Assembly: GCA_964529325.1 (NCBI GenBank)
Contig: CAZGWH010000001.1
Location: 66,872-130,871, forward strand
DNA from: an uncultured bacterium
GTDB lineage: Bacteria > Fidelibacterota > Marinisomatia > SCGC-AAA003-L08 > GCA-2689995
Direction: 5' to 3'
DNA length: 64,000 bases
The notes beneath the pieces were generated by a model. That model saw only the letters and a program-made list of their open reading frames with translations. It was not told the origin of the DNA and did no database searches. This document shows, piece after piece, positions 6,334-60,100 of this stretch (position 1 is its first letter; every line of letters starts with the position of its first letter). Made by a program: the position numbers and the translations under genes.

Positions 6334-9045
6334 TTAATGTGCATTAAACCAATGCTTTCCAATTCCAACATCAACTTTTAATGGAACTTTTAATTTCATT
6401 GCATTTTCCATTTCAAATACCACAATTTCTTGAAGTTGATTTAATTCATTTTCAGGTAATTCAAATATTAATTCATCATGAACCTGTAATATCATTTTAG
6501 ATTTCAATTTTTCAGATTTTAATTTTGAGTAAATATTTATCATTGCCAATTTAATTAATTCAGATGCAGAACCTTGTATTGGCATATTAATGATTGCTCT
6601 AGATTCTGCTTGAGCTTGCTGTCTATTCCCTGTATTTAAGAATCGTGTTTTCCGCTTTCGACCATGAATGGTAGAAACAAACCCATTTTCTTTTGCACTC
6701 GCAATTGTAGAATCGATATAATTTCGAATACCTGGGTATGTATTAAAATAATTATCAATTAAATCTCGTGCTTTTGGCATAGAAATACCTAATTCTTGAG
6801 ACATTCGAAATGGTCCAGCACCATACATAATTCCAAAATTGACAACCTTTGCGGTTCTTCGTTGATCCTCAGTAATTTGATTAACATTTGTATTAAAAAC
6901 TAACGAAGCTGTTCTTGCATGAATATCATCACCATTATTAAAAGCGTCGATTAAAACCTTTTCTTCAGATAAATGAGCCATTATTCGTAGTTCAATTTGA
7001 GAATAATCAGCTGACAATAGTTTCCACCCTTTATTTTCAGGTTTAATTGCTTTTCTAACTTCTCTGCCTAATTCAGTTCTTATCGGAATGTTTTGAAAAT
7101 TAGGTTTTGTGGAAGATAAACGCCCTGTTCCAGCAATCGTCTGATTCCAACTTGTATGAATTCGATTTGTTTTATCATTAACATATTCAGGTAATGCATC
7201 AACATAAGTTGATTTTAATTTTTTATACTGTCGATATTCTAAAATTTTCTCGGGTAAAGGATGGTAATTTTTTAAAACTTCTAAAACTCTAACATCCGTA
7301 CTTCGTTTTCGAACTGTTTTTAACTCAAGCTCATCAAATAAAATTTCAGATAATTGTTTAGGTGAATTAATATTGAATTCTCGCCCTGCCATATCATAAA
7401 TTTCCGAAATACTATTTTCTAATTTTTTGCCTAATTCATTTGATAATTTTTTTAAAAACTTACAATCAACAAATACACCTTCATGCTCCATTTCCACTAA
7501 CACAGGAATTAATGGATTATCAATTTTATTATAATATTCTAATACTTCGTCGTCTTTTAATATACTTTCAAATTTTTTTGTTAATGTAAAAGTTATATCT
7601 GCATCTTCAGATGCATAAAATGAAGCTTTTTCAATAGAAACTTCATCCATAGTTATCTGACTTTTTCCTTCACCAATTAATTCGGATATTGGCATCATTG
7701 AATATCCTAAATATTGTTGAGCTAAGAAATCAAGATTATATTCATGTATTGCAGTGTTCATTAGATGAGCACCAATCATTGTATCAAAGTAAATTCCATT
7801 TAATTCAAATCCAGCATTATTTAAAACAATGATATCAAATTTAATATTTTGACCACATTTCCGAATCGACTTGTCAGCTAAAATTGGATTTAATACTTCA
7901 ATAACTAATTCAATTTTCAGTAATTGTTTTGATTCTAAACCTTTTACTGGAATATAAAACCCAGTGTTTTCCTTGTCAGATATTGATATTCCAACCAATT
8001 CTGCACTATGTGGATCTATAGATGTCGTTTCTGTATCAATAGCAATTAGTGGTAAATTTTTTATTTCTTTACATAGTAAAATCAATTCATCAATTGATTT
8101 TACTAATCTATAATTTTTATTAACTTTTTTAGTTACTATCTTTTCTTTCTTTTCAATTAATAACAAATCGACTTGTTTTTGCAAAGAAAATAATTCATAT
8201 TGACTAATTAGATTAATTAGCTTTTTGCTATTTGCAGGTCTTCGTATAAAATTATTAATATTAGAATCAATTGGTACATTTGTATCTATTGTTACCAATT
8301 TAAGTGAAGTTTTATAATATTCTCTAGCATTTATTAACCCTGCAGATACTCTTTTATTTTTTACGGATTCTGCATTTTCAAATATTGAATCAATATCTTT
8401 ATATTCAATTAATAGTTTACTTGCTGTTTTATTTCCAACACCCTCTACACCAGGAATATTATCAGAAGTATCACCCATTAATGCTAAAAACTCTGTAATT
8501 TTTTCAGATGGAATCCCCCATTTTTCAATTACTTTTTTTTCATCATAGATTGTTGTTGGCTTAAATCTATTTCCAGGGGAATAAACAAAAGTGCTCTCAT
8601 TCACAAGTTGCATTAAATCTTTATCTCCAGAAACAATATAAGTATCAACATCATGCGAACGAGCATTTTCAGTAATTGTACCAATTATATCATCTGCTTC
8701 ATAACCAGGTAATTTTATCATTGGGAAATTTGCAGCTTCTAAAAAATCTAAAATAGGTTGTATTTGTTCAGCTAATTCTTCAGGCATTTTAGGACGAGTT
8801 GCCTTGTATTCCTTATACATTTTATGGCGAAATGTCGGTTCTTTACAATCTAAAATCACAGCAAAATATTCAGGATTTTCATCCCGAAGTAATTTAAAAA
8901 TAGAATTAAAAAATCCATGAATCGCAGAGGTATGATTACCATTTGATGTAATTAATGGGTTCTTAATCATTGCAAAATGTGCACGATATATCAATGCCAT
9001 TCCATCAATTAAGAATAGTTTTTTCTTTGAATTTTTTTTAATCAA
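6334..9045 (-). CDS. polA: DNA polymerase I
   Basis: 903 aa. It has a 5'-nuclease N-terminus (DGMALIYRAHFA), 3'-5' exonuclease motif I (IAIDTETTS), and polymerase motifs A (LLSADYSQIELRIMAH), B (RRTAKVVNFGIMYG) and C (QVHDELIFE). Confidence 0.97.
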   Translation of the reverse strand: MIKKNSKKKLFLIDGMALIYRAHFAMIKNPLITSNGNHTSAIHGFFNSIFKLLRDENPEYFAVILDCKEPTFRHKMYKEYKATRPKMPEELAEQIQPILDFLEAANFPMIKLPGYEADDIIGTITENARSHDVDTYIVSGDKDLMQLVNESTFVYSPGNRFKPTTIYDEKKVIEKWGIPSEKITEFLALMGDTSDNIPGVEGVGNKTASKLLIEYKDIDSIFENAESVKNKRVSAGLINAREYYKTSLKLVTIDTNVPIDSNINNFIRRPANSKKLINLISQYELFSLQKQVDLLLIEKKEKIVTKKVNKNYRLVKSIDELILLCKEIKNLPLIAIDTETTSIDPHSAELVGISISDKENTGFYIPVKGLESKQLLKIELVIEVLNPILADKSIRKCGQNIKFDIIVLNNAGFELNGIYFDTMIGAHLMNTAIHEYNLDFLAQQYLGYSMMPISELIGEGKSQITMDEVSIEKASFYASEDADITFTLTKKFESILKDDEVLEYYNKIDNPLIPVLVEMEHEGVFVDCKFLKKLSNELGKKLENSISEIYDMAGREFNINSPKQLSEILFDELELKTVRKRSTDVRVLEVLKNYHPLPEKILEYRQYKKLKSTYVDALPEYVNDKTNRIHTSWNQTIAGTGRLSSTKPNFQNIPIRTELGREVRKAIKPENKGWKLLSADYSQIELRIMAHLSEEKVLIDAFNNGDDIHARTASLVFNTNVNQITEDQRRTAKVVNFGIMYGAGPFRMSQELGISMPKARDLIDNYFNTYPGIRNYIDSTIASAKENGFVSTIHGRKRKTRFLNTGNRQQAQAESRAIINMPIQGSASELIKLAMINIYSKLKSEKLKSKMILQVHDELIFELPENELNQLQEIVVFEMENAMKLKVPLKVDVGIGKHWFNAH

Positions 9046-9115
9046 AGATGAAGAAATATTATTTCTTATTGTATTTGAGGTTTAATACTAATGGGTTGTT
9101 AATTAACATTAAATG

Positions 9116-9592
9116 TTAATCTTTTATAATACGGATTAATTTTCCGTTCCTATATAATTTTTTTCTATCCAAGCTACCATTATTATTATATGTATATTGA
9201 ATACCATCTAAATAGCCAAAATTATAATTTCGTTTAAATTTATTTTTACCACTTACAAACCAACCTAACTGTTCGCCATGCATTAAACCATATCGATAAT
9301 TTAATACCATTTTTTTTGTACCATTTTTATACCAATGTTCCTGTTCACCATTTAATGAATTATTTTCATAATTCATTTCGGATAATTTTGGAGGGTCGTC
9401 AGATTGTGGTACAGAATAGAAATCAATTGATTTCACTAATTCCATTTGAAAATAATTCCCTTTGTATGTGAGTTCTCTTTTCTTACCACCATTTGGGTAT
9501 AACTCAATTTCTTTTTCTAAAGAAATATTTGAACATCCACTAAAAATTAAAAGGAAAGATAATAATATTATATATTTTTGATTTATAGTCAC
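9116..9592 (-). CDS. Lipoprotein with MORN-variant (YwqK-like) repeats
   Basis: Signal peptide with a lipobox-like LIFSGC. Repeats of the form YxNGxxK...Y..G...G (YPNGGKKRELTYKGN, WYKNGTKKMVLNYRYGLMHG, YNNNGSLDRKKLYRNGKL). Confidence 0.5.
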   Translation of the reverse strand: MTINQKYIILLSFLLIFSGCSNISLEKEIELYPNGGKKRELTYKGNYFQMELVKSIDFYSVPQSDDPPKLSEMNYENNSLNGEQEHWYKNGTKKMVLNYRYGLMHGEQLGWFVSGKNKFKRNYNFGYLDGIQYTYNNNGSLDRKKLYRNGKLIRIIKD

Positions 9593-9657
9593 TGAATATA
9601 GGTTAATTCTATTAGTTGAAATTTATTCATATATCGTATAATTGACCAACCACTGAA

Positions 9658-10014
9658 TTATTTATTTTTCAACATTGTTTTGAATATTTTAGTTGCTTCA
9701 TTTGGGTTTGAATCAAAATATCCTTTTACTTTTTCTTCAATTTCATGGCTTATTTTTTGGCTTGGATTTTCATCTGTTTGAATTTTAGGAATTATTTTTT
9801 CAACCAATTCATTCACTTTCTCTTGATCATTCATATTAATAATTTCTTTTTCTAAATGACTATCTTTTTCATCATCATTTTCATTAATAATATTAATTTT
9901 CATATTAGATGGTTTTGGAATAACTGAATAAGGATATTTACTTCCAGAAATTAAAGTGACAAATAAACCAATTATTACATTTATAAAAACAAATAATATG
10001 AAAAAATAAATCAT
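9658..10014 (-). CDS. Hypothetical membrane-anchored acidic protein
   Basis: 118 aa with one N-terminal TM helix and a Glu/Asp/Lys-rich tail. No recognisable motif. Called only from ORF length and its co-directional position. Confidence 0.35.
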   Translation of the reverse strand: MIYFFILFVFINVIIGLFVTLISGSKYPYSVIPKPSNMKINIINENDDEKDSHLEKEIINMNDQEKVNELVEKIIPKIQTDENPSQKISHEIEEKVKGYFDSNPNEATKIFKTMLKNK

Positions 10015-13728: not shown

Positions 13729-14259
13729 ATGAAAATTATCAGTACAACAATTATATTACTTTTAAACATAGGTATTTTATTTAGCGAAAATACAGGGCTT
13801 CCAAATGTAAAATTAAAGGATTTCGATAAGAAAAGAGTTGCTATGAATACTCTGGCAAAGGATGGTCCTATTCTTATAAACTTTTGGACAATGGCATGCG
13901 AACCGTGCAAAAAAGAAATGAAATATTTAAATAAATTTCATAATAAATATGCAGAAAAAGGGTTTCAAGTATTTTCAATAAACATGGATACTCCTCGAAG
14001 TATGGCAAAAGTAAAATCATACATTAAGTCCACAGGATATAATTTTACAGTTCTTTCAGACCCTCGTTCAGAATCATTTAGAAAATTAGGTGCAAAAGCA
14101 ATGCCTCTCATATTATTAGTAAACAAAGATGGAAATATCTATAAACGACATACTGGATATAATCCCGGAGATGAAATTGGGTTAGAAAATGAAATTAAAG
14201 AATTAATTATTCATAATTATCCAGAAACAACTTTTGAATCAAAGACAGAAAGTAGATAG
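13729..14259 (+). CDS. TlpA/ResA-like periplasmic thiol:disulfide oxidoreductase (thioredoxin fold)
   Basis: Signal peptide, CxxC motif in FWTMACEPCKKEMP, and a cis-Pro region (AMPLILLVNKDG). Confidence 0.8.
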   Translation: MKIISTTIILLLNIGILFSENTGLPNVKLKDFDKKRVAMNTLAKDGPILINFWTMACEPCKKEMKYLNKFHNKYAEKGFQVFSINMDTPRSMAKVKSYIKSTGYNFTVLSDPRSESFRKLGAKAMPLILLVNKDGNIYKRHTGYNPGDEIGLENEIKELIIHNYPETTFESKTESR

Positions 14260-16361
14260 TGAAAATATATTTAATTATTTTTTTATCGTTCACCTTTACT
14301 CAAACGGATATTAATTTTTCCCTTGAATCTAAATTTGGTGAAGGGACTAATATTACAAATGAAGGAAGTACAGAAAAGCCTTATAATTATTTTGAAAATA
14401 TTCTAGATGTAAATATGCAATTTTCTTCTGGAGTTTCATTATGGTCACAATGGGAATATAGTGAACCACCCATTTTTGGTGTAAATAAAAATGGTCTAAA
14501 TAAATTTTATTTTGAGTATAGTGAGGATGTGTTTAATGTAAAAGTGGGTGATATTTATACATTATATGGACGCGGTCTTTCATTAAATATGGTGATAAGC
14601 CAAAATGTTGATTTAGATAATAGTATTAGAGGATTAGAATTTGAGTTTTACCCTTCAGATTATCTGCGTGTTTTTTCGCTTGTTGGAAAAGGCAGATATG
14701 ATTATCGGACAAACCCAGCACAAACCATTTCAGATAGGTGGGTAAATAATCGTGTTTATAGCATTGGTATGGATTATGATTTTAATCAATTGGGAATATT
14801 TCAAATGTATTATTTAAATCAATCTTCTGAAATTGATGAATCCATGATGAATTTATATAATAATGAACATCTTGATACGCGTTTAGGAAAAGAGTTTTAT
14901 GACAGAGTTTCTTATGAAGAATATCGAACAGATACTCTTTCCTCCAAAATAATAAATTTAAATTGGACAAATTCTATTGGACTGATTGACTATTATTTTG
15001 AGTATTCAGGAAATAATTATTCAAAATTATTAGGAGATGATACTGATGGATATAAAATTTATGGCTCACTCTCCACCTATCTCGCTGGATTTGGAATTAC
15101 CTATGAATACAAAGATTATAATGAACCATATTTTATTCAATCATTGGGTGGTGCACCAATTGTATACCGAGAATCTACTTCAATACTAGGTTCACGATAT
15201 AATCATTCAATGAATTTTAATGATGAAATAGGACATCAAATTGAAATCCAATATGCAATTAATGAAAACTTGAATTGGATGGTAAACGCATCGCAATCAA
15301 ATTCTCATGTTGGAAAATATTTATCAATTGATATTGATTCATTAGCAAATGAATCAACGCAAAATTATATCCACTCAAACCCATTTAATTTAGTGTTTAT
15401 GCAAGGAAATGATGAGGATTTAGCCTTTAAACCATTTAGACAATTTTACACTGAATTTTCAGGGTATACATTTAATAATCATTTATTTTTTCAAGTTGGA
15501 ATTGACCTTTTAGATGATGTGTTTAAATATCATGATACAAAAGTTTATGATTATGGTGATATTAATATTGATAATTATATTCATTTTGTAGATTCGTCTC
15601 TTTCTATTTGGAATATAGAAGAATTGAATCTTGTCACCAAAAATTACAATAATAATCTGTCAAATTTTAGCGGGATATGGAACGATTATTTTAATTTATG
15701 TGAAAGTTTAGGGGATTATATTTGTCCTGGACAAACAGCGAATGAATATGCAGACTCAACCATATTTTCAAGTTATGGAATTAGTTATGAAGATTCATTA
15801 GCAAACCTTTTTTCAAATTATGAATTTAATTATGAAAATAGAGAGAATGAGTTAAAAGTTGAATCTACAAAAGCTAGATCTGATAGCTTAAAATCAAAAA
15901 AGTATGAATATACAGAACAAACAGTTGTCACTTTACCCATGCGTTTTTCATGGAATTTTGGTGATGGTAGTTCAATTTCTACCTATTGGGAACATCAATG
16001 GAGAAATGTAAATGCAAGCCATGATATTTTATTACTCGATGGAACTATTGATAGTAGGCTAACAAAAATCGAAAATTACTATAATCAGTACTTTTCAATA
16101 TCATATCGTCATCCTAAAAAGTGGTCAATCACTTTATTTTATGACGGCGAAACACATGATAAAAAATTAGGTGGTGAAATTTGGTCTGATAAATATAATG
16201 ATTGGAAAGGTGCAGATTTCACCTTTGACATGAATTCAAGTAGTCAATTATCTATTTTTTATGGAAGCCAAAAAGGTGGGAGAATTTGTGCAAATGGTGT
16301 GTGTGCTGACCAACCCGGATTTAAAGATGGTTTTAAATTAACATATCGAAGCTTCTTTTAA
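14259..16361 (+). CDS. Putative outer-membrane beta-barrel protein, function unknown
   Basis: GTG start overlapping the TlpA-like stop (taGtg). It has a signal peptide, an aromatic/Asn/Tyr-rich alternating pattern, and a C-terminal ...LTYRSFF with terminal Phe, an OMP signature. Confidence 0.5.
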   Translation: MKIYLIIFLSFTFTQTDINFSLESKFGEGTNITNEGSTEKPYNYFENILDVNMQFSSGVSLWSQWEYSEPPIFGVNKNGLNKFYFEYSEDVFNVKVGDIYTLYGRGLSLNMVISQNVDLDNSIRGLEFEFYPSDYLRVFSLVGKGRYDYRTNPAQTISDRWVNNRVYSIGMDYDFNQLGIFQMYYLNQSSEIDESMMNLYNNEHLDTRLGKEFYDRVSYEEYRTDTLSSKIINLNWTNSIGLIDYYFEYSGNNYSKLLGDDTDGYKIYGSLSTYLAGFGITYEYKDYNEPYFIQSLGGAPIVYRESTSILGSRYNHSMNFNDEIGHQIEIQYAINENLNWMVNASQSNSHVGKYLSIDIDSLANESTQNYIHSNPFNLVFMQGNDEDLAFKPFRQFYTEFSGYTFNNHLFFQVGIDLLDDVFKYHDTKVYDYGDINIDNYIHFVDSSLSIWNIEELNLVTKNYNNNLSNFSGIWNDYFNLCESLGDYICPGQTANEYADSTIFSSYGISYEDSLANLFSNYEFNYENRENELKVESTKARSDSLKSKKYEYTEQTVVTLPMRFSWNFGDGSSISTYWEHQWRNVNASHDILLLDGTIDSRLTKIENYYNQYFSISYRHPKKWSITLFYDGETHDKKLGGEIWSDKYNDWKGADFTFDMNSSSQLSIFYGSQKGGRICANGVCADQPGFKDGFKLTYRSFF

Positions 16362-16459: not shown

Positions 16460-18031
16460 ATGAAAAAAATATCTCTACTAATATTACTAACTTTATCGAT
16501 TGTAAGTGCACAAACTTATGATATGGGAGATGTAATTAGTGAAGACCATCAAAATCAAAGTTTTGATATTTGTTACGGTGACGACAATTCATTATTTCAA
16601 TTCTCTGAATTAAATGGTGCGTTAAATAATGATGGCAAATATTGGATAACCTTCATTGATATGGCTGCAACTTGGTGAGGCCCATGTTATAACGACATCG
16701 GTTCGATGGACGCACATGCTGATTATTGGATGGAACCTGAAGATGGTGAAGATAATAATGAAAATGGTTTAGTTGATGAAAGTGTAAGATATATGGTTGC
16801 ACTTGCTGATATTGGTCAACCATATACGTGTGAACAATGGGGAGATGCAGGTATTAACGGAATTCCATTAATTGTTGAAGACCCTGGAACTATTTTTGGT
16901 TGGCTACACGATTCATATAATGCATACCCTTCTTATGCTATTTTAGATCATGAAATGAGGGTTGTTGATAAACCATGGCCTTATGGCTCAACTGATAATT
17001 TAATTCAAAGTCTATATGAAACTTGTGAAGAAGCAGGATTATGTGGAGCAGTATCTGATTTAGACAATGACGGACTAGTTGGTTCAGATGATAATTGCCC
17101 GAATGATTATAACCCAAATCAAGATGATAGTGATGATGATGGATTGGGTGATTTATGTGATGAATGTTTAAATTCTTCTGGTGATTTAAATGAAGATGGG
17201 TTTATTAATATTACGGATGTAGTTGTAACGGTAAACATTGTATTAAATGGTGGAATAAACTCAAATGCATTTACAGAATGTGAAAAATCCAATGCAGATT
17301 TTACAGGTGATGGAATAATTAATGTATTAGATATTATTCAAGTTGTTAATGTAATTTTGGGAAATACTGCACAATACTGCAATTGTAATAATAGTAATTT
17401 AGATTTAAATAAAATCTCTGGTAGTGTTGAAGCATCATTTATAACACAATCAAATGATTTAATTATTAATTTGGAATCTACTCATTCATTTAGTGGTGTA
17501 CAATTTTTTATTCCCGGTAAAAATACTGATATTAAATTACTTGACAATAGCCATATTAATTTAGAAGCTAACTATTTTAATAATACGACAACTGTAATTG
17601 CCTATTCATTATTAAATCAAGCATTTGATAGTAAAAATGTAATATTTACAATAAATAATGGAGCACATTTAAATATACAAGATATTCAAATAATTATTGG
17701 AGATACCCATGGAAGGGAAATGGAACTTATAAAATCTAATAATGGTACTGTATTCCAAAATGGACCATATGTTTTTGAATTATCAAATATATATCCAAAC
17801 CCATTTAATCCAACAGCAGAAATTAGTTTTTCGCTTGCAGAGGCTGGGTACATTACATTAATGGCGTATAACACAAATGGACAACAAGTGGGAACTATAT
17901 TTGATGGCTATCAAGAAAATGGAATTCATTCTTATTCTTGGCATGCAAGTAATCTGCCATCAGGTGTATATTATGTCAAATTGTCTGATGGTGTTAATCA
18001 ACAATTTAAAAAAGCAATTTTATTAAAATAA
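16460..18031 (+). CDS. Candidate selenoprotein: secreted thioredoxin-fold (W-U-G-P-C) / TSP type-3 repeat / dockerin-like / T9SS C-terminal-domain protein, with the in-frame TGA at 16676-16678 read as Sec
   Basis: Track ORFs 16460..16678 and 16706..18031 are in the same frame, with TGA as the only interruption. Read-through gives IDMAATW-[TGA]-GPCYNDIGSMDAH. The paralogue at 18048..19541 aligns as IDMSATW-C-APC. Also present are a signal peptide (VSA|Q), a TSP3 motif (DNCPNDYNPNQDDSDDDGLGDLCD), dockerin-like DLNEDGFINITD / DFTGDGIINVLD, and a T9SS CTD (YPNPFNPTAEISF...GVYYVKL...ILLK). Confidence 0.6.
16676..16678 (+). other. In-frame UGA, candidate selenocysteine codon
   Basis: TGA sits at the position of the N-terminal Cys of the CxxC redox motif. 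The aligned codon in the tandem paralogue is TGT at 18264-18266. Confidence 0.55.
16683..16718 (+). promoter_or_regulatory. Candidate bacterial SECIS-like stem-loop
   Basis: Hand-folded. The apical stem is CATCG (16696-16700) / CGATG (16704-16708) with loop GTT. CG (16693-94) / CG (16711-12) pairs lie after a small internal loop. The lower stem is CATGT (16683-87) / ACATG (16714-18). The structure starts 5 nt after the UGA. Confidence 0.4.
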
Positions 18032-18047: not shown

Positions 18048-19541
18048 ATGATAAAAAATATAATTATAGGATTCGCATTAATTTCAACCATTTTTCCAGC
18101 AATTTATGGAGTTGGTGATGTAGTTAGTTCGTCTCATCAAAATGTGAGTTACCCCGTATGTTATGGTGAATATGAAACAGAAGGGTTTAAACTTTCGGAT
18201 TTAAATGGTGAATCAAATGGAGGAGTTTTTAAAGTATCTTTAATAGATATGTCTGCTACATGGTGTGCCCCATGCGTTGCTTTTATTCCTGAGTTTGATG
18301 GAATTGTTGATGATTGGTCTGATAATGATGGAGTATTTATTTTTAATGCATTAATGGATATGAATCAACCCTATTCTTGTGAACAATGGGGAGATATGGG
18401 TATTTCAAATATTCCTGTTATTATTGACGATGGTAATGGTGGTGGTAATAGTATTTTTAGTTTTTTTAATACAGGAAGTGCAATTCCAAGTACGGTATTT
18501 ATTGATCATGAAATGAGAGTTCAATATATGTCAAATCAAGTTACGAGTAATCAAGCCAGTAATATAATTCAAAATATGCTAGGTGATTGTACTATGTGTG
18601 GTAATCCTGATTATGATAGTGACTTTGTTTTAAATGAGACCGATAATTGTCCAAATGATTATAACCCAGACCAAGAAGATGAAGATTATGATAATCTTGG
18701 AGATGTATGTGATTCTTGTCACAATATGTCTGGAGACCCTAATGATGATTTATTTGTAAATATTACAGATGTAATTTTAACTGTAAATCTAATTTCAACA
18801 GGAGGAATAACTTCAGAGTTTTATAATGATTGTGAAAAAGCAGATGCAAATTTTAATAGTGATGATACAATTAATGTTTTAGATATCATTCACATGATTA
18901 ATATAATTCTTGGTAACACTGTGTTAAACTCTAATAATGATAATAAGGCTACAGTTAATTTCAATCAAGATAATAACCAATTAAAAATTACGATTAACAG
19001 TGATATTGAAATTTCGGGAATACAATTAAATTCTAATTCACAATTTTCAAATGTTAAATTATTACAAAATAATGAAAAAGAATTAATTTCAAATGAAGAT
19101 ATTATATTAGCTTATTCATTACAAAATATTCCATTTGAAAATAATAAAATAGATTTGGTTTTAGATAATGCTCATAATTTAAATATTGATGATATTCAAA
19201 TAGTAGTGAGTGATATATTCGGAAATGAATTAACATTAGTAAAATCAGAAAATGGTAATATTTATAGTAATGGAGTATATGAGTTTGAATTAGATAATTC
19301 ATATCCAAATCCATTTAATCCAACTACAAAATTGAATTTCTCCTTACCTATGGATGCTAATATTCAATTAGTTGCATATAATATTCATGGGCAAAAAGTT
19401 CAAGAAATTTATAGTGGATATAAGACTGTTGGCTCTCATCAATTCAATTGGAATGCATCTCATTTATCAAGTGGAATTTATATTGTTAAATTAATTTCAG
19501 AAAACCATCAAACAAGTATTCAAACAATACTAATGAAATAA
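18048..19541 (+). CDS. Secreted thioredoxin-fold (WCAPC) / TSP type-3 repeat / dockerin-like / T9SS C-terminal-domain protein (Cys paralogue of the upstream gene)
   Basis: 497 aa with a signal peptide. Contains IDMSATWCAPC, DNCPNDYNPDQEDEDYDNLGDVCD, DPNDDLFVNITD / NFNSDDTINVLD, and a CTD (YPNPFNPTTKLNF...GIYIVKL...ILMK). An RBS-like AAAGGAAG lies upstream, and the gene is 16 nt from the previous gene. Confidence 0.8.
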   Translation: MIKNIIIGFALISTIFPAIYGVGDVVSSSHQNVSYPVCYGEYETEGFKLSDLNGESNGGVFKVSLIDMSATWCAPCVAFIPEFDGIVDDWSDNDGVFIFNALMDMNQPYSCEQWGDMGISNIPVIIDDGNGGGNSIFSFFNTGSAIPSTVFIDHEMRVQYMSNQVTSNQASNIIQNMLGDCTMCGNPDYDSDFVLNETDNCPNDYNPDQEDEDYDNLGDVCDSCHNMSGDPNDDLFVNITDVILTVNLISTGGITSEFYNDCEKADANFNSDDTINVLDIIHMINIILGNTVLNSNNDNKATVNFNQDNNQLKITINSDIEISGIQLNSNSQFSNVKLLQNNEKELISNEDIILAYSLQNIPFENNKIDLVLDNAHNLNIDDIQIVVSDIFGNELTLVKSENGNIYSNGVYEFELDNSYPNPFNPTTKLNFSLPMDANIQLVAYNIHGQKVQEIYSGYKTVGSHQFNWNASHLSSGIYIVKLISENHQTSIQTILMK

Positions 19542-51765: not shown

Positions 51766-54700
51766 TTATTTCATTAACACAATTTTCTGTGAAGATTGAA
51801 ATAAATCACTTTTAAAATTAACAATATATACGCCACTTGGATGATTTACAGCATTCCATTTAATTGTATGATATCCTGATTCAATATGTCCATCTATTAG
51901 TGTTTCAATTAATCGACCGTTGAGGTCAAATATCTGTAGAGACATTGCGTGTAATGTCTCAGGTATACCAAATTTAATTGTTGTTTCAGGATTAAATGGA
52001 TTAGGATATGCATTTGATAATTTCCACTTCTCTGGAATCACATCTTGAATATCCATTAACTTTTCAATAGATGTTACGCCTAAAGGTGACCATGGATAAA
52101 TTTTATTTGAATATCTATCTTCTGTTAAATTTATTTCAATACCATTATTTTTTATTAGTGTAAATTCAGGTGTATCTCCTATTTCACAGAATCCATCTGT
52201 ATCTTCAGTTAAATCTTTCCCCATTACAGGGATAGCTGAATGTTTACCATTCCATAACCCCGATCCCACATACACATCATTACAATAGGCAAGGATTATA
52301 TCTCCATTTTCTGCATTGTCAATTTCTTCAATTAAGTAAAATGCTTGCTCTGTTGATTGTACAAATTGGTATTCTTCTGGTATTTGATATGTCTCTTCCA
52401 TTCCAAGACCACTACTTTGTGGATTTGCACAATTATCATTTCCCCATGCAAACTGTGGATGTTCACCAATTCCATTTAGCCAATACCCTTTACTATTTTG
52501 CAATGAAACTAAATTTCCACTCCAACCATCTATGGTTTTAAATAAACCAAGTCCCTGGCCTAAAATGAAGTTGAAATTTTCCGTCGCATATTGTTCTCCT
52601 CCTAATGCTTCTAATGTAGCAATATTACCTTCACCCCATTTAAATGAAACTAAGTTATTTCCGTCTGAAAGTCCATATTCTTCACAGTTATTTATCATTT
52701 GTGAATATGAAATCTCCCGAGTTTGTGCTTCATCACCTTCATAATTTACCCAGTATCCTGAATACTTGTTTAAATTAACTAAATTACCACTCCATCCTTC
52801 ATTAGTATTAAAAATACCAAGACCCTGGCCAAGTATGAAATTAACTTCACTAGTTCCATTTAAAATATTTTCTAAAAAATTAATACTATTATTATCTTCT
52901 AATTCTCCAGGAAAACTCACAAGATTATTACCACCTTGAAAATCAATAATTACAATTTGACCATTATTAACTGTTACATCAAATCCATCAGTTATCGTCT
53001 CAACACCATCAGATATAGTGTAACTAATTGAATATACTTGTCCTGCATTTTCTTCGAGAGGAGACCAATTTATAATACTTCCTTCAATAACCATTCCTTC
53101 AGGTCCTGATATAAATGAGAAACTAATATCATCACCATCTACATCTTCTACTATAATTTGATATTGGTAAATTGATCCAACATAGGCATACACAATTGGA
53201 GATGATAATATTTCAGGTGCATCATTTACAGCAGAAATAGATATAGCCAATACCCTTGAATATATATTATGCTCTTCCTGTCCATCATTTGCTGTAATGG
53301 TAATATTTTCTTCTCCATTGGCATTTTCAATAGCAGTTATTATAAGATTACCATTGTCGTCTAATGTAATATTTACTAAATTAGATTCCGATGTTGTAAA
53401 ACTTATAACTTGATTAGACTCATTTTCAGGATGATTTATTTCTGTGGTAATGTTAATTATTTCGGTAAAATCTTCCGTTTGTTCAATACTTGTTGCACTC
53501 AAATTAAATTGAGGCATATCATTTACAGAAGTTACGATTAATGTAAATTCAGTTGTACTACTTTTTTGATTATTTTCATCATCATCTGTTGCAGTTAATG
53601 TAAGTGTTTCAGTTCCAAAATAGTCTTGCATTAAATTAAAACTCATTAACCCATTTGAAAATGAAATAACCGAGCCATTATTTCCAGAAACAGCAAACTC
53701 CATATTTGTAAATTCTGTACCTATGTCAGATACATAATCTTCAAGATTAATTGAAAAAACATCACTGTCTTCTTCTACGCTTATACTCGGTATTGCTGTA
53801 ATAACTGGCGTATCATTATTTACCGTTAGAAAAATTTCAGTCGTGGCTGAATATTCATGCAAAGAACCGACATCAGTTGCAATGATTTGCAATGCAGAAC
53901 TACCTGTCCATGTGGGATCTACAGCAGTTATAAAACCATTGACTTGGTCAGAAAAATCAACAAGGAAAAATCCTGCATTAATTAAATAAGGATTATCAGG
54001 TATTCCATTACTTGAATTTGCTGAAAATGTTAAATTTGCACTGGTGGGATATATATTTCCTCTTAAATCATCAAAGAATTTAAATTTAATTTCCTGTCCA
54101 TTTGTATTGGAGTAAATGGTCATAAAATATACCCAATTACCTGCAAAATCAATTGCAGTAGCAACTCCTCTAAGTTCACCATTACTAAATGCACCTAAAA
54201 TATGACTATTTCCTATTGCAGGGTCACCACCTGATTTAACAGACGCGGTAATGGTCATTGAAAGTTCAAAACCCGCTGGATTAATATTCCATGTTGGAGC
54301 AGGTAATGGTGATTCAAGAGCAGGAAAATCATATTCCCATGCAATATCATCACCGTCAAGTTCAATGATATTATCATTTAAATTTATAGGTGTAAAACTC
54401 TGTCCTATTTCTATTTCTTGGTCTGGGAAATTATCAAGAGAAGGTGCATGGTCTAAAGGTAATATTGAAAATATTACACCTTGTGAACCTGAAAATGATA
54501 ACTCAGATTGATCTGTTGCAGTAAAGAAAATTGTTTCGTTGCCAAGCCATTCATTATTTAATGGTGTAATTGTCGCAATACCATCAGTTAAGTTAACACT
54601 TAGATTCGTGTTCCCACTAGATGACCACTGTATTGGGTCATCATCTACTTCAAGTAAAAAGTCATTTAAATTAATATCATTAAATCCAATACCTTGCTCA

Positions 54701-56988
54701 GTGATTTGGTTTTCAATACCTTCTACAACTGGCATGTGATCAGGTATAATTGTAAGAGTCACGGTATTACTTGCTGAGTAATTATTAAGTGTTCCTTGAT
54801 CTGTTGCTGTAAAAGATATACTCTCTACACCATGCCACTCAGGATCAACAATGGTAAAACCAGCCATATCATTTTCATCAATATCAACCAGTATTGCACC
54901 TGCTTTTAATCCAAGTGGATTCTCAGGTTCTCCCTGTGCAGTATTTGCTGAAAATATTATACTTTGATTGACAGGTAATATTCTACTTGAATTATCATCA
55001 AAAAATTTAAGTTTTATCTCTTCTCCATTCCCATTGGCATATATGGTTAAAAAATACATCCATTTTCCAAAGACAGGAAGTGCAGTAGTCACTCCTCGTA
55101 GTTCTCCATTTGAGAATGCACCCAGGGAATGACTAAATCCTTCTGTCTCAACACCTAATGCTTCTACAGTCGCAGTTATTGTCATTGATAATTCATAATC
55201 AGATGCATTTACATTCCAGTTTGGATTACTCTCTGTATTCTCTTGAGCGTCAAAGGCATAACTCCATTTAACATCATGTCCATCGATTTCTGTTAAATGA
55301 TTATTTAAATCAATATCATCAAACATGCCAAAAAAACCAATCAATTGACTATCCATTGCAGTTACCTCTGGAGCATTATCTGGAATAAGTACGGTAAATG
55401 TAACTTCATCAACGCTAAAAAATTGACTCTCCGTTTGATCTGTTGCGGTAAATGTAACCGTCTCAAAGCCTATAAAATCAGTAAAGCTGATTGTAGCAAT
55501 GCCACCTATTATGCTAATATCTAAATTTGTATTTCCAGATACGGTCCATACTATATCATCACCATCCACTTCCGTTAAATAATCATTTAAATTAATACTT
55601 GTAAAGTTTCCATCACCTTCAATTGTTTGGTTGGGTATATCACTTACCACTGGATTATGATCTGGAAGTACAGTAAATACTACTGGATCTGATGCTTCAT
55701 AATTATTAAGTGTCAATGGTTCAACCGCTCTAAAAGATACCGTTTCACTACCTGTCCATTCAGTATCAACAATACTTATAGATGCAATATCATCTTGAAT
55801 ATCAATAAGTAGTCGTGCAGAATTAATTTCATACGGATATTCAGGATCGCCCAGTGCAGCATTTGCTTCAAAAGAAACCACTTCTACACTAGGAAGTAAA
55901 AATTGATCATTACCATTATAAAACTTAAATTTAATTTCATCATTATTTGAGTTTGCATATACGGTTAAAAAGTAAACATCATGTCCCAGTACATATAAAG
56001 ATGTTGCTGTCCCTCTACATTCATTACCTACAAATGCTCCCAAAACATGACTATTCCCTATCGCTTCAATACCATTACTATTTACAATGGCGGTAAATGT
56101 CATACTAAGTTCATAATCAGATGCATTTACTTCCCATGACGGATATGCTTCATTTTCTATTTGAGGTAATATGGTATATTCCCAATTAATAACATCACCA
56201 TCTTCTTCAATCAGATAATCAGATAAATTAATATGTGCAAATGTTCCACCTGCACCAACAGTTTGGTTTGGAATATCTATTAAGGCAGGTTCATTATCAA
56301 TGCCCCATATTGTAAATATTGCTGTAGTTGAAGCAGATAGTAAAGCGTCTGTATTATCCGTTATGGTAAAAGTAATTGCTTCATTACCTGTCCATTCACT
56401 ATTTACAGGAGTAATAGTTACCGTATTATCATTTGCAATTGTTACCGATAAATATTCATTACCACTAATTGATATCGTAACATTATCCTCATCTTGTAGA
56501 TAAATAAAATCATCTAAATCAAAGCTAGAAAAACTATTTCCAATTTCTATTTCTTGCTCGTAAATTGAATAAATAACAGGTGGGAAATCAAAACCAATAT
56601 ATCCACTAAACGCATACGGATTATCTGGCTGTCCCATACTTCCATTGGGAATAAATGCTTCACTATTTGTTAAATTATATTCACCATCGGTAAATACTCT
56701 AAATTCTAAATCTTCACCAGGCTGATTTGCATATACGGTAATAAAATATAAATAATTATCTAACGCATATATTGGCGTAGCAAATCCTCTACACTCATCG
56801 CCCACAAATACACCGACTTTATAATCAGCATGATCTACCACTTCATTATTAATATTTAGTGTACTGGTAAAAGTCATCGATAATGCAAAATCTGCAGGAT
56901 TATATTCCCAGTCTTGCGATACACCAACACTAAGTAATAAAATTATCTGTAATGAAAATAAATATGTTCTCATGATATTTCCGTTCAT
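51766..56988 (-). CDS. Giant modular T9SS-secreted surface protein (1740 aa)
   Basis: Signal peptide, then four copies of an uncharacterised ~105-aa domain alternating with Ig-like modules. Also VNDxP-delimited cadherin-like modules, a He_PIG-like Ig domain (ISFSFISGPEGMVIEGSIINWSP), two GNNL...GYW modules, and a T9SS CTD (YPNPFNPETTIKF...GVYIVNF...IVLMK). Confidence 0.8.
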   Translation of the reverse strand: MNGNIMRTYLFSLQIILLLSVGVSQDWEYNPADFALSMTFTSTLNINNEVVDHADYKVGVFVGDECRGFATPIYALDNYLYFITVYANQPGEDLEFRVFTDGEYNLTNSEAFIPNGSMGQPDNPYAFSGYIGFDFPPVIYSIYEQEIEIGNSFSSFDLDDFIYLQDEDNVTISISGNEYLSVTIANDNTVTITPVNSEWTGNEAITFTITDNTDALLSASTTAIFTIWGIDNEPALIDIPNQTVGAGGTFAHINLSDYLIEEDGDVINWEYTILPQIENEAYPSWEVNASDYELSMTFTAIVNSNGIEAIGNSHVLGAFVGNECRGTATSLYVLGHDVYFLTVYANSNNDEIKFKFYNGNDQFLLPSVEVVSFEANAALGDPEYPYEINSARLLIDIQDDIASISIVDTEWTGSETVSFRAVEPLTLNNYEASDPVVFTVLPDHNPVVSDIPNQTIEGDGNFTSINLNDYLTEVDGDDIVWTVSGNTNLDISIIGGIATISFTDFIGFETVTFTATDQTESQFFSVDEVTFTVLIPDNAPEVTAMDSQLIGFFGMFDDIDLNNHLTEIDGHDVKWSYAFDAQENTESNPNWNVNASDYELSMTITATVEALGVETEGFSHSLGAFSNGELRGVTTALPVFGKWMYFLTIYANGNGEEIKLKFFDDNSSRILPVNQSIIFSANTAQGEPENPLGLKAGAILVDIDENDMAGFTIVDPEWHGVESISFTATDQGTLNNYSASNTVTLTIIPDHMPVVEGIENQITEQGIGFNDINLNDFLLEVDDDPIQWSSSGNTNLSVNLTDGIATITPLNNEWLGNETIFFTATDQSELSFSGSQGVIFSILPLDHAPSLDNFPDQEIEIGQSFTPINLNDNIIELDGDDIAWEYDFPALESPLPAPTWNINPAGFELSMTITASVKSGGDPAIGNSHILGAFSNGELRGVATAIDFAGNWVYFMTIYSNTNGQEIKFKFFDDLRGNIYPTSANLTFSANSSNGIPDNPYLINAGFFLVDFSDQVNGFITAVDPTWTGSSALQIIATDVGSLHEYSATTEIFLTVNNDTPVITAIPSISVEEDSDVFSINLEDYVSDIGTEFTNMEFAVSGNNGSVISFSNGLMSFNLMQDYFGTETLTLTATDDDENNQKSSTTEFTLIVTSVNDMPQFNLSATSIEQTEDFTEIINITTEINHPENESNQVISFTTSESNLVNITLDDNGNLIITAIENANGEENITITANDGQEEHNIYSRVLAISISAVNDAPEILSSPIVYAYVGSIYQYQIIVEDVDGDDISFSFISGPEGMVIEGSIINWSPLEENAGQVYSISYTISDGVETITDGFDVTVNNGQIVIIDFQGGNNLVSFPGELEDNNSINFLENILNGTSEVNFILGQGLGIFNTNEGWSGNLVNLNKYSGYWVNYEGDEAQTREISYSQMINNCEEYGLSDGNNLVSFKWGEGNIATLEALGGEQYATENFNFILGQGLGLFKTIDGWSGNLVSLQNSKGYWLNGIGEHPQFAWGNDNCANPQSSGLGMEETYQIPEEYQFVQSTEQAFYLIEEIDNAENGDIILAYCNDVYVGSGLWNGKHSAIPVMGKDLTEDTDGFCEIGDTPEFTLIKNNGIEINLTEDRYSNKIYPWSPLGVTSIEKLMDIQDVIPEKWKLSNAYPNPFNPETTIKFGIPETLHAMSLQIFDLNGRLIETLIDGHIESGYHTIKWNAVNHPSGVYIVNFKSDLFQSSQKIVLMK
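53980..56913 (-). repeat. Four protein-level copies of a ~105-aa domain (W-x-[YV]-N-x-x-x-[FY]-[EA]-L-S-M-T ... [LV]G[AV]F ... [EG][CL]RG ... Y[FL][ILM]T[VI]Y[AS]N ... F[KR][FV][FY])
   Basis: Copies lie at about 56605-56913, 55825-56136, 54913-55221 and 53980-54294. Copies 2-4 are spaced about 305 aa apart, forming a super-repeat with two Ig-like modules. Coordinates were derived by residue counting and checked at the W codon 55216-55218. Confidence 0.7.
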
Positions 56989-57149: not shown

Positions 57150-60100
57150 TTATTTCAATAATACCATTTTTTTAACGCTGTTATACGCAGGAGTAATCAT
57201 CCTGTAAAAATAAACACCGTTTGAAAGTGGTAATCCTGACATATCACTTGCATTCCATACAATGGTATGATAGCCAGCTTCCATCTGTCCATTCACAAGT
57301 TCAGTTACCATTCGTCCCTTTAAGTCATACACTGCAATTGATACCTGTGCATTATCTGGAAGATCAAAACTAATCGTTGTTTCTGGGTTAAATGGGTTTG
57401 GATAGTTCTGAGCCAAGTTATAACTCATTGGTACAAAGCGTACTTCATATTCAAGTTGTGCACCAGATCTATCAACCACAATAATATTACTTATTGTTTG
57501 TATATCATCAGTTGTAAATAGTATTCCATCATTAATGCCTTTTCCATTGGTATTCATCATCACTGTTTTAAGTGAACCATTCATATTATGAGTAAAGAAC
57601 TCATGTTTAGAATCGATCATTTCGATTCCTGGTAAGTCAAACTGGATACCTGCGATATTATTACTTGATGTAATGTAAACTTCATTACCCTGTACTTTAA
57701 TATCAACAACTAAATCATTATCTGCTCTTACCATTGGAATATCTAAGATGATAGATACCATCTCTACAATGTCAGCAACATTGATATCTTCATCACTGTT
57801 GATATCTGCGACTGCAAATTCATGCACTGAAGGTTGTTCTACATCTAAAATGTAGTTTACCGTTTGTAATACATCAATCACATTTAGAACACCATCAAAT
57901 GATACATCACCCACGGGTGGTTCTGCATTTAAGCTAAATGGAGTAAGTACATCACCTACATTTGCATTTGCAGAAAATGCAGTCTGCTCATAAACTGACC
58001 AGATAATATCATCTTCGGCATCAAACAATTTATAATAAATATCCTCATTTGGTGTATTACTATAAACCATTAAGAATGCTGAATATCTATCTAATGATTC
58101 AATGTATATCGGTTGTGCAACACCTCTGCACTCTTCAACCATTCCATTTTCAGTTTCAACAAGCGTAAATGCACCAATCATATCAGTTTCACTATTTAAT
58201 GATAATCCATTTACAAGCCCAGTTGCAGTCACTGTCATACTATGTTCATATTGATTTACATTCACATTCCAATTTGGAGCATTTAATGCAAGTGGTGATT
58301 CATAGATTTCGTCTATTTCATCACTATCTCTACCCGAAAGTTCAAATGGATAATTTAAATCACCATCCCAAAGAGATTTTAACATATATCCCTGTTTGGG
58401 TGACATATAATTAAGCGACCCAATCCAACCTAAACCTTCAACAAACATGGAGAATGCAAATTGACTTTTCACAATATCACCCGTTGCTGAATTTAATGAT
58501 TCAAGTGCATCATTTACAGGCATACTAAATTGAGAAGAATAACCCACCCAATTCCAACCTGGAACCACTTTTACAGTATCAAGTTCAACATTCACAGGAT
58601 AACCGACCATTTCCATTTCATCTGGATTGGTTAAGTTAATTAAATACATCGACTCATTTGAAAACTCAGATAGTGTTCCTACCCAACCAAAGCCAGAAAC
58701 ATATTGAGCAAACGAAGTCTGATCTTTTATTTGATCACCACCCGCTGGATTCATATTCGATAAAATATTATCCAAGCTCATATCATCATTTTCTAAATTA
58801 AGTGAAAACCAAGTATAACCAGCAGGATAATCCATTGATGAAATAACCTGACTTGTTGCTGTAATAGTTGCTGGACTTGTCGGTGTACCATGAGAGGCAT
58901 TGGCCTCAAATGTATATGTCTCATCAATCCACCCAAGTTCTCTACAATCTGACGCATCCCATACTCTAAATGAAAGCGCTTCACCTGATGGTTGATTGGA
59001 GTACACTGTTAAAAATACTTCATACGCATGAGTATTTGCTAAATCATCTAATGCTTGAATATAATCAACTCGTGCAATACCACGCATTTCATCACCCACA
59101 AATACACCTACAATATCATAAGCATCCTCAGAAAGTTCACCTTCAGTAGATAATGTAGCTGTAATATTCATGGTATATTGATAACTTGCAGGATTTAATG
59201 TCCATTCAGGTTCGTAACATAATTTACGAATATCAATATTCATTGGCTCATCACCCATGGTTCCTGATGCATAAAGCGTAGTTTGATATTGACCAAAATC
59301 AAGGCCTTCTACTAAACTAATTGAAACATCTTGAGCAGACCCAGGAGTAAGCGTTCCATTTAATGGAGATACTTCTAACCATGCTGGTAAAGGTAGTGCA
59401 TCACCACTTGGGATTGCACCTTCCCGTCCATTAATCATTTCATACGACCGATTTGAGCCACCATTATTGACGAGTTGTCTCTGTGTAGAATATTCTTCAT
59501 CCACCCAAATTACAATATTATCAATATTGGTTCCAGACCATTCGATTGGATTTCGATTTACAAAAAATTCCCATACAACGGGCTCTGTACGCGTATTCCC
59601 ATACATATCTTGAAGATTATGAATCTCGGCTCTAAATGTTTGATTTTCAATCCAGCTATTTGCTGGAGCAGGTTCAATCGTAATTGTATTAAACCCACAT
59701 GTATAGGTGAAGTCCAATGGATTACCTGTAACGGTATTAAATAATTGAATATCTCCTGCACCTTGATTAATTTCACCACATTGAACATCTTCATCAAATG
59801 ATGCACCAATAAAATCATCACTTGCTAAAATACCACCTGCTGGTTCTGTTAACCCAAAGACCTGAGGTGCTGACCTGTCAATCAATCCAGTAACCACTTC
59901 AGATGTACCTGCATATTTACCTTCTGTACATTGTGCTTGAGTACGCAATTCATATTCTCCATCAATTACAATTTCTGGATCTATATTAAATGGTAGTAAT
60001 ACATAATCATCAATCAAATCAACTGTTGGAATAGATTGAGTTGAAAACCAATCCCCTCCATCCGCTGGACGATATTGTAAATCAATATCAGTGAAGAATG

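Follow-up and report, generated by a model that had tools for sequence, protein, structure and literature searches.

A 64,000-nucleotide stretch of DNA from an uncultured Marinimicrobia (Neomarinimicrobiota) bacterium (contig CAZGWH010000001.1; the whole stretch is referred to below as the window) contains an open reading frame (ORF), 16460-16678, that closes at a TGA (16676-16678) and continues in the same frame to a TAA at 18031. The question raised by this locus is whether the TGA is a stop or is read as selenocysteine (Sec), and whether the RNA just behind it acts as a bacterial selenocysteine insertion sequence (SECIS). An earlier note, made from the letters of the window, had drawn an imperfect hairpin at 16683-16718 and proposed that it was compatible with such an element. 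We find that the proposal is supported: position, loop size, loop G, and spacing fit the published model of bacterial SECIS elements, the apical part of the hairpin covaries among homologues, and the adjacent cysteine paralogue lacks it. We conclude from comparative sequence analysis that the apical stem-loop, 16696-16708, very probably constitutes the working core of a bacterial SECIS in the gene of an exported selenoprotein of TlpA/thioredoxin-like type, while the remainder of the structure as drawn appears not to be part of the element.

An in-frame UGA at the catalytic cysteine position

The complete selenoprotein gene occupies 16460-18031 on the + strand, as do the UGA, the hairpin and its parts, and the adjacent Cys paralogue, and comprises 523 codons plus stop in a single frame through the TGA, with UGA as codon 73. 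Its translation across the UGA, ...IDMAATW-U-GPCYNDIGSMDAHADYW..., places this codon at position 1 of a UxxC redox motif, U-G-P-C, whose resolving Cys is the TGT at 16685-16687; columns T13 and G14 are invariant in our ungapped alignment A2 (described below), and the Cys is invariant in alignment A4. The domain order is a signal peptide, judged to be present by reading the N-terminal sequence, a TlpA/thioredoxin-like domain with the U-G-P-C motif, a thrombospondin type 3 (TSP3)/dockerin-like module, and a C-terminal sorting domain of the type IX secretion system (T9SS). Pfam models Por_Secre_tail and Dockerin_1 were detected in the selenoprotein, and similarity to AhpC-TSA, Redoxin, and Thioredoxin was weak, with scores under the gathering thresholds. 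A family profile of the N-terminal domain matched the thiol-disulfide oxidoreductase structures 4k9z (E = 1e-7) and 2lja (7.5e-7).

The adjacent gene, 18048-19541, is a paralogue with the same domain order that reads ...IDMSATW-C-APCVAF..., and Cys73 of its W-C-A-P-C motif (TGT, 18264-18266) aligns with the UGA, as does Cys elsewhere. The AlphaFold model of this paralogue (predicted local distance difference test score 75.7) has a ResA/TlpA/DsbE-like N-terminal domain; in Foldseek, its target-normalized template modeling score reached 0.73 to ResA-like 4nmu (E ~1e-5), and it superposes on 4nmu, DsbE-like 3gl3, and TlpA 1jfu. On these profile and model matches, the host protein is predicted to have a thioredoxin fold with a CxxC-type motif, as in TlpA/ResA/DsbE-like thiol-disulfide oxidoreductases. 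It shares with the TlpA/ResA/DsbE proteins this redox motif, along with the profile and paralogue-model matches, and differs from them in that Sec would replace the N-terminal Cys and in carrying extra C-terminal modules for T9SS export.

Homologues were collected in a metagenome scan, which gave 79 loci, and a genome scan, which gave 31, of which 11 (L080-L090) entered the RNA-model search. In the collection, TGG-TGA occupies this Cys position of UxxC at 103 distinct sites, nearly all from marine Marinimicrobia and forming 41 clusters at 80% identity; Cys (TGT) is present at 8 distinct homologous sites. The closest genome is the Candidatus Neomarinimicrobiota metagenome-assembled genome (MAG) NIOZ-UU64, which is syntenic with 92% identity. 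Across ~100 homologues the sequence is conserved at the protein level on either side of the TGA, and UGA matches Cys in homologues, the Sec/Cys pairing with conserved flanks that the bacterial SECIS search model looks for. A covariance model built on A2 recovered 112 TGG-TGA sites and, among the same matches, 7 TGG-TGT sites. Since TGA terminates 9 of the 41 long ORFs in the window, it is an ordinary stop in this genome, which excludes a reassigned code with TGA read as Trp or Gly; the only credible in-frame TGA of the window is the one at 16676-16678. Thirteen of 14 diverse homologues translated across the TGA have a signal peptide and conserved motifs within the 67-81 codons upstream of it (the fourteenth has a longer N-terminal extension), and translation across the UGA is therefore strongly implied at the sequence level.

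Conservation and covariation of the apical stem-loop

All 12 base pairs claimed in the earlier note are present in the window. The lower stem pairs a 5′ arm, CAUGU (16683-16687), with a 3′ arm, ACAUG (16714-16718), through C16683-G16718, A16684-U16717, U16685-A16716, G16686-C16715, and U16687-A16714. A CG/CG step follows, its 5′ side (16693-16694) paired to 16711-16712 (C16693-G16712 and G16694-C16711), and the 5-bp apical stem CAUCG/CGAUG (16696-16700 with 16704-16708) consists of C16696-G16708, A16697-U16707, U16698-A16706, C16699-G16705, and G16700-C16704. The loop is GUU at 16701-16703, as had been described, with the loop G at nucleotide +23 and a gap of 22 nt between UGA and loop; G16701 and U16702 are the presumed contacts of SelB. 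The apical stem and its loop overlap the codons for D-I-G-S-M.

These helices were scored on alignment A2, a TGA-anchored, ungapped alignment of 40 distinct sequences with the same protein spacing that was not fitted to any structure. The apical helix had 86.0% of its cells paired, compared with 70.4 ± 1.9% in shuffled alignments and 33-51% in controls in which the helix was slid along the sequence; its covariation score was 0.408, compared with 0.149 when shuffled, and none of 500 shuffles reached the real value for either measure. Three of the five apical pairs have changes on both sides, with 16699/16705 occurring as A-U in 21 sequences, C-G in 14, and U-A in 2, and 16696/16708 as C-G in 32, A-U in 4, and U-A in 2. 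RNAalifold with RIBOSUM scoring found the apical helix de novo, extended by one pair, and restricting the sequences to the clade that the protein motif I[GS]x[MI]D defines likewise recovered it.

The rest of the hairpin as drawn, its lower two-thirds, fared differently. The lower stem and CG step were 57.1% paired, compared with 57.5% in shuffles, with covariation of 0.086 compared with 0.080, and 336 of 500 shuffles reached the observed pairing. Taken alone, the lower stem was 63% paired, its departures being unpaired cells, and the CG step was 42.5% paired; the close relatives L005 and L001_547 already read ACACA at the 3′ arm, which breaks the lower stem. Most subfamilies instead extend the apical stem by the equivalents of 16694/16710 and 16695/16709, which are mismatched in the window. 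The expectation that the hairpin would be conserved or covarying among TGA-containing homologues was therefore borne out for the apical stem-loop and not for the lower stem and CG step, neither arm of which is supported as structure; judged by homologous sequences, these parts do not belong to the SECIS. We also scored the hairpin 16679-16703, part of the minimum free energy (MFE) fold of the region, and rejected it (57.8% paired compared with 56.3% in shuffles, covariation 0.076 compared with 0.085, with 48 of 500 shuffles reaching its pairing).

The covariance model aligned divergent hairpins poorly, with many gaps, and its pair counts (70% paired) add little; our conclusions are based on A2 and on hairpins scored sequence by sequence against synonymously recoded controls. 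At 102 of the 103 sites, a stem of 4-10 bp closes a loop of 3-9 nt that lies 18-32 nt after the UGA and has G as its first or second nucleotide, most often as part of GU; the UGA-to-loop spacing was 21-23 nt at 75 of these 102. Their loops are GUU (29 sites), GGC (13), AGUUC (12), GGUCA (8), GGA (7), GGUUU (5), GUC (5), GUA (4), and GGU (4), the rest being of other types. Even when the best hairpin was chosen without constraint on its loop, loop nucleotide 1 or 2 was G in 39 of the 41 clusters. The peptides encoded at the hairpin differ among subfamilies (DIGSM, SISSM, YGVPA, IEVFD, TPIVDG, LSSFD, and QQGPVG), and the stems are wholly different with the same shape and GU-type loop. Distant subfamilies present a small GU- or GG-containing loop 21-26 nt after the UGA and share no stem sequence: those with a GUU loop include CCAUAG-GUU-UUAUGG, ACGGG-GUU-CCCG(C), CAUCGAA-GUU-UUCGAUG, and AUUGUCAA-GUU-UUGAUAAU, and those with other loops include CCCAU-AGUUG-AUGGG, CCAGCAG-GGUC-CUGUUGG, and CCAUU-GGUCA-AAUGG.

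Synonymous recoding addressed the contribution of the encoded peptide. Real cluster representatives averaged -5.7 kcal/mol compared with -2.5 kcal/mol for their recoded versions (-6.2 compared with -2.2 when calculated per sequence); 18 of 41 clusters were individually significant at p < 0.05, and the Fisher combined p value was 7e-12. On this comparative evidence, the apical stem-loop is a genuine RNA element, under selection and specific to genes that contain the UGA.

Cysteine homologues as a negative control

The adjacent Cys paralogue provides an internal negative control. As the earlier note had anticipated, from 18264 onward it shows no hairpin at SECIS distance (0 to -1.3 kcal/mol); its segment is no more stable than dinucleotide shuffles (z = +0.60), and the covariance model scored it at 12.9 bits compared with 64.4 bits for the Sec site. 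Seven of the eight Cys homologues are essentially without the hairpin (0 to -3.6 kcal/mol), and none of these seven has a G-first loop. The exception is L066:1591 (TGT), WCTPCWNAIGQM, which keeps a perfect GCCAUU-GGUCA-AAUGGC hairpin of -9.0 kcal/mol; close relatives of L066 (compare L063 and L064) have TGA, and L066 is probably a recent Sec-to-Cys conversion with a fossil SECIS.

Comparison with known SECIS elements and selenoproteins

The bacterial SECIS (bSECIS) model of Zhang & Gladyshev, implemented in bSECISearch, specifies a 3-9 nt apical loop on a 4-16 bp upper stem, a G in the first two loop positions that is usually followed by G or U, 16-37 nt between UGA and apical loop, and an MFE of -7.5 kcal/mol or lower (as restated in PMC13188914, Fig. 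2A). The window hairpin resembles this model in lying in the coding region right after the UGA and in having a 3-nt loop with a G-U start, a 5-bp stem, and a spacing of 22 nt. It differs in being at the small, weak end, with -7.0 kcal/mol for the complete drawn hairpin in ViennaRNA against the cut-off of -7.5. The apical stem alone gives -4.2 kcal/mol, the drawn structure at 10 °C gives -13.6, and the best nested extension over 66 nt reaches -9.3 via a different, unconserved lower stem; on which side of the cut-off the element falls depends on the energy model and the temperature. With the exception of L066, it is the apical helix, and not the lower stem and CG step, that is conserved in UGA homologues and absent from Cys ones, as the model describes for bSECIS elements.

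The SECIS elements of Escherichia coli fdhF and fdnG are experimentally defined SelB-binding hairpins with an essential apical stem-loop, a loop G-U at a fixed distance, and a dispensable lower part; the fdhF element has a bulged U in its upper stem, which starts ~11 nt after the UGA. The window element similarly presents an apical loop G-U at a fixed distance from the UGA, and some subfamilies have GGUC or GGUCA loops. It differs from fdhF in having no bulged U, a GUU triloop, and no sequence similarity, and its stem begins 17 nt downstream of the UGA (15 nt for the longer-stem subfamilies). The element would work like the fdhF class without being a member of it.

Marine Trx-like and Prx-like UxxC selenoproteins are known from the Sargasso Sea and Global Ocean Sampling (GOS) metagenomes (PMC2398784, Table 2). 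Like those families, the protein described here is a marine thioredoxin-fold UxxC protein with Cys homologues and weak Pfam similarity; unlike them, it has a signal peptide, a TSP3/dockerin-like module, a T9SS domain, and tandem Sec/Cys paralogues in Marinimicrobia, and no named GOS subfamily was matched. We found no NCBIfam model covering the selenoprotein family. Against NF045500, the Omp28-related selenoprotein model, the protein scored 57.8 bits with a curated cut-off of 200 and is thus not a member. The NF045500 match is confined, in both paralogues, to the TSP3/dockerin-like module (residues 199-300, approximately 17054-17359 and 18603-18911; 58-61 bits), which corresponds to the C-terminal third of NF045500 and suggests that the module is shared with another selenoprotein family. 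A description of the present family was also absent from the literature searched on Marinimicrobia, Marinisomatota, SAR406, or T9SS in combination with selenoproteins. The mechanism is thus textbook and the kind of element already known; it is this particular family for which we found no description.

Weighing of alternative explanations

Several results weigh against a SECIS at this site, and most of them come from the sequence of the window itself. For 16676-16730, the MFE of -9.4 kcal/mol belongs to a different fold, made up of the hairpin 16679-16703 and a second hairpin, and the apical stem is out-competed in silico, with a pairing probability of 0.16 at 37 °C. The earlier note had made stability relative to dinucleotide shuffles a test of its claim, and here the claim failed: z was +0.70, and 147 of 200 shuffles of 16676-16730 folded equally well or better, although such a test is weak where the hairpin is only 13 nt long. 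SECIS-shaped hairpins that were as good or better occurred in 16% of dinucleotide-shuffled versions of the 60 nt following the UGA and at 5% of the window's 2,867 TGA trinucleotides, and the window site did not significantly outperform synonymously recoded versions of its peptide (p = 0.24 to 0.28). No Rfam family matched the window at the gathering thresholds, and at 16600-16800 the only hit was a chance match to mir-241 (E = 3.7). Across homologues, RNAalifold with default scoring found no consensus structure for the 40 sequences of A2, since in seven of them the hairpin is shifted by 1-3 nt, and the relatedness of the homologues means that shuffle controls overstate their independence. On the window sequence alone, the hairpin is not beyond chance, and these figures are what would be expected of a functionless feature, with the UGA possibly still encoding Sec via another signal. 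We consider this explanation highly improbable, given that the hairpin shape recurs at the same distance in all but one of the UGA sites, with compensatory changes, and is missing from nearly all Cys homologues. The same comparison bears on the idea that a conserved peptide (I-G-S-M-D) and codon bias give rise to the hairpin incidentally. DIGSMD is indeed conserved in the window's clade, recoding of the window site often gives a comparable stem, and three of the five apical pairs vary little; however, across subfamilies this segment is among the least conserved of the domain and yet every variant encodes a hairpin, the combined recoding test is strongly significant, and the Cys paralogues have the same fold without the hairpin. 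Selection on the peptide alone is thus a most unlikely source of the pattern.

The TGA might alternatively be a true stop between a gene for a 72-residue peptide and another, beginning at ATG 16706, for a 441-residue protein, with the hairpin regulating re-initiation. Gene callers, including NCBI's, start most homologues at that Met, and ATG 16706-16708 forms the 3′ arm of the stem. We give this arrangement hardly any credence: it would split a thioredoxin fold inside its CxxC motif with the TGA exactly at the Cys position, it would detach 72 codons that in homologues hold a signal peptide and conserved motifs, and in many subfamilies that form the hairpin this ATG is missing (for example, YGVPAV, IEVFD, LSSFD, and TPIVDG). 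Finally, the hairpin could stimulate read-through of the UGA with insertion of a residue other than Sec, either Cys or Trp from a near-cognate tRNA or by SelB-independent local recoding. What speaks for this, and more generally against a SECIS, is that neither the 64-kb window nor 707 kb of related DNA, which consists of flanks of this gene only, yielded tRNA-Sec, selA, selB, or selD; E. coli SelA, SelB, and SelD queries gave no matches in this DNA, a result that is uninformative. In addition, three SAR406 (Marinimicrobia) single-cell genomes have been listed as 'orphan SelD', that is, with SelD and no recognized selenium-utilization trait, and without SelA or SelB (PMC5029168, Table 1), a listing that attests SelD for the phylum. 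These assemblies, however, appear to be incomplete, the UGA is found solely where a redox motif has its catalytic Cys, a hallmark of Sec/Cys exchange, and the hairpin fits the SelB-type bSECIS model in its loop G/U and spacing. We therefore regard insertion of another residue as very unlikely. The abundance of UGA-containing genes suggests that the missing selenium trait of the 'orphan SelD' organisms is Sec decoding.

Proposed mechanism

With the apical stem-loop taken as the SECIS core, the decoding of this UGA can be pictured as follows. When UGA 16676-16678 is in the A site, the next dozen or so nucleotides would be inside the ribosome; the 5′ arm of the lower stem, 5-9 nt after the UGA, would then lie in the mRNA channel, and the ribosome would unwind both the lower stem and the competing hairpin 16679-16703, which lie within ~5-13 nt of the codon. 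The apical hairpin starts 17 nt downstream and would still be able to form. Because the ribosome would remove the lower stem and the competing hairpin, conservation of only the tip is understandable, and the competition seen in silico on the 5′ side would be irrelevant. The loop nucleotides G16701 and U16702 would recruit SelB-GTP-Sec-tRNA(Sec), and Sec would be inserted as residue 73 to give the U-G-P-C active site. The product would be an exported TlpA/ResA-like thiol-disulfide oxidoreductase of a Marinimicrobia bacterium with a signal peptide and a T9SS sorting domain. The sequences show that the UGA corresponds to Cys, that the reading frame is conserved across it, and that the apical hairpin is conserved and covaries specifically in UGA-containing genes; SelB binding, melting by the ribosome, and the Sec insertion itself are inferred.

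Annotation and gene neighborhood

Public gene calling is consistently in error for homologues (P0001-P0016). In most calls the start is placed at the Met ten codons past the TGA (16706 in the window), the NCBI name for these mis-called proteins being 'T9SS type A sorting domain-containing protein', and the ENA calls P0006, P0007, and P0016 take the TGA as Trp ('WWGPC', 'WWGTC', and 'WWGGC'). Tandem Sec paralogues are found in several loci: L074 has three TGA genes (405, 1106, and 2545) in one 3-kb locus, there are two each in several others, and loci with tandem paralogues also include L008, L009, L072, and L073. L080, the syntenic MAG contig with 92% identity, carries one more short TGA paralogue (8835-9758), located between its DUF6029 gene and the orthologue and missing from the window.

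Upstream of the selenoprotein gene are a conventional CxxC Redoxin/TlpA-like gene (ACEPC; 13729-14259) and a DUF6029 gene (14259-16361), in the same order as in L080, and the neighborhood may be an extracytoplasmic redox gene cluster. After the two paralogues, and syntenic in L080, 19673-22366 encodes an 897-residue T9SS-sorted protein with an N-terminal class-II glutamine amidotransferase-like domain (GATase_4), which is unusual for an exported protein. L081-L084 have a tRNA Gln-Glu-Arg cluster ~3-5 kb downstream of the gene; ARAGORN found no tRNA in the whole 64-kb window. Two giant ORFs on the - strand, 51766-56988 (1,740 residues) and 57150-63881 (2,243 residues), have Big_9 and Laminin_G_3 as their sole Pfam matches and presumably encode surface or adhesin proteins.

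Implications

For annotation, this locus should be entered as one 523-residue selenoprotein rather than a 72-residue fragment and a truncated 'T9SS sorting domain protein', and the same re-annotation is due for roughly a hundred public homologues. For SECIS prediction, selection here acts on a 13-nt tip only, which in AT-rich genomes may miss the usual energy cut-offs; since the selected tip is so small and can fall below these cut-offs, single-sequence thermodynamic tests would wrongly reject a real element. These genes could possibly form an uncatalogued, Marinimicrobia-specific family of T9SS-exported TlpA-like selenoproteins (at least 41 clusters) with tandem Sec/Cys arrays, systematic mis-calling, and an unusually minimal SECIS, although we hold this broader view only tentatively. 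With similar reserve, we propose that this minimal SECIS takes the form of a GUU-type triloop on a stem of 4-8 bp, at about -4 kcal/mol in this AT-rich genome. If such a family exists, its SelB would have very low hairpin requirements. Abundant deep-ocean Marinimicrobia appear to put selenium into secreted or surface thiol-disulfide oxidoreductases, and SAR406/Marinimicrobia, once listed as 'orphan SelD' organisms, would, if the family is as proposed, be heavy users of extracytoplasmic selenocysteine.

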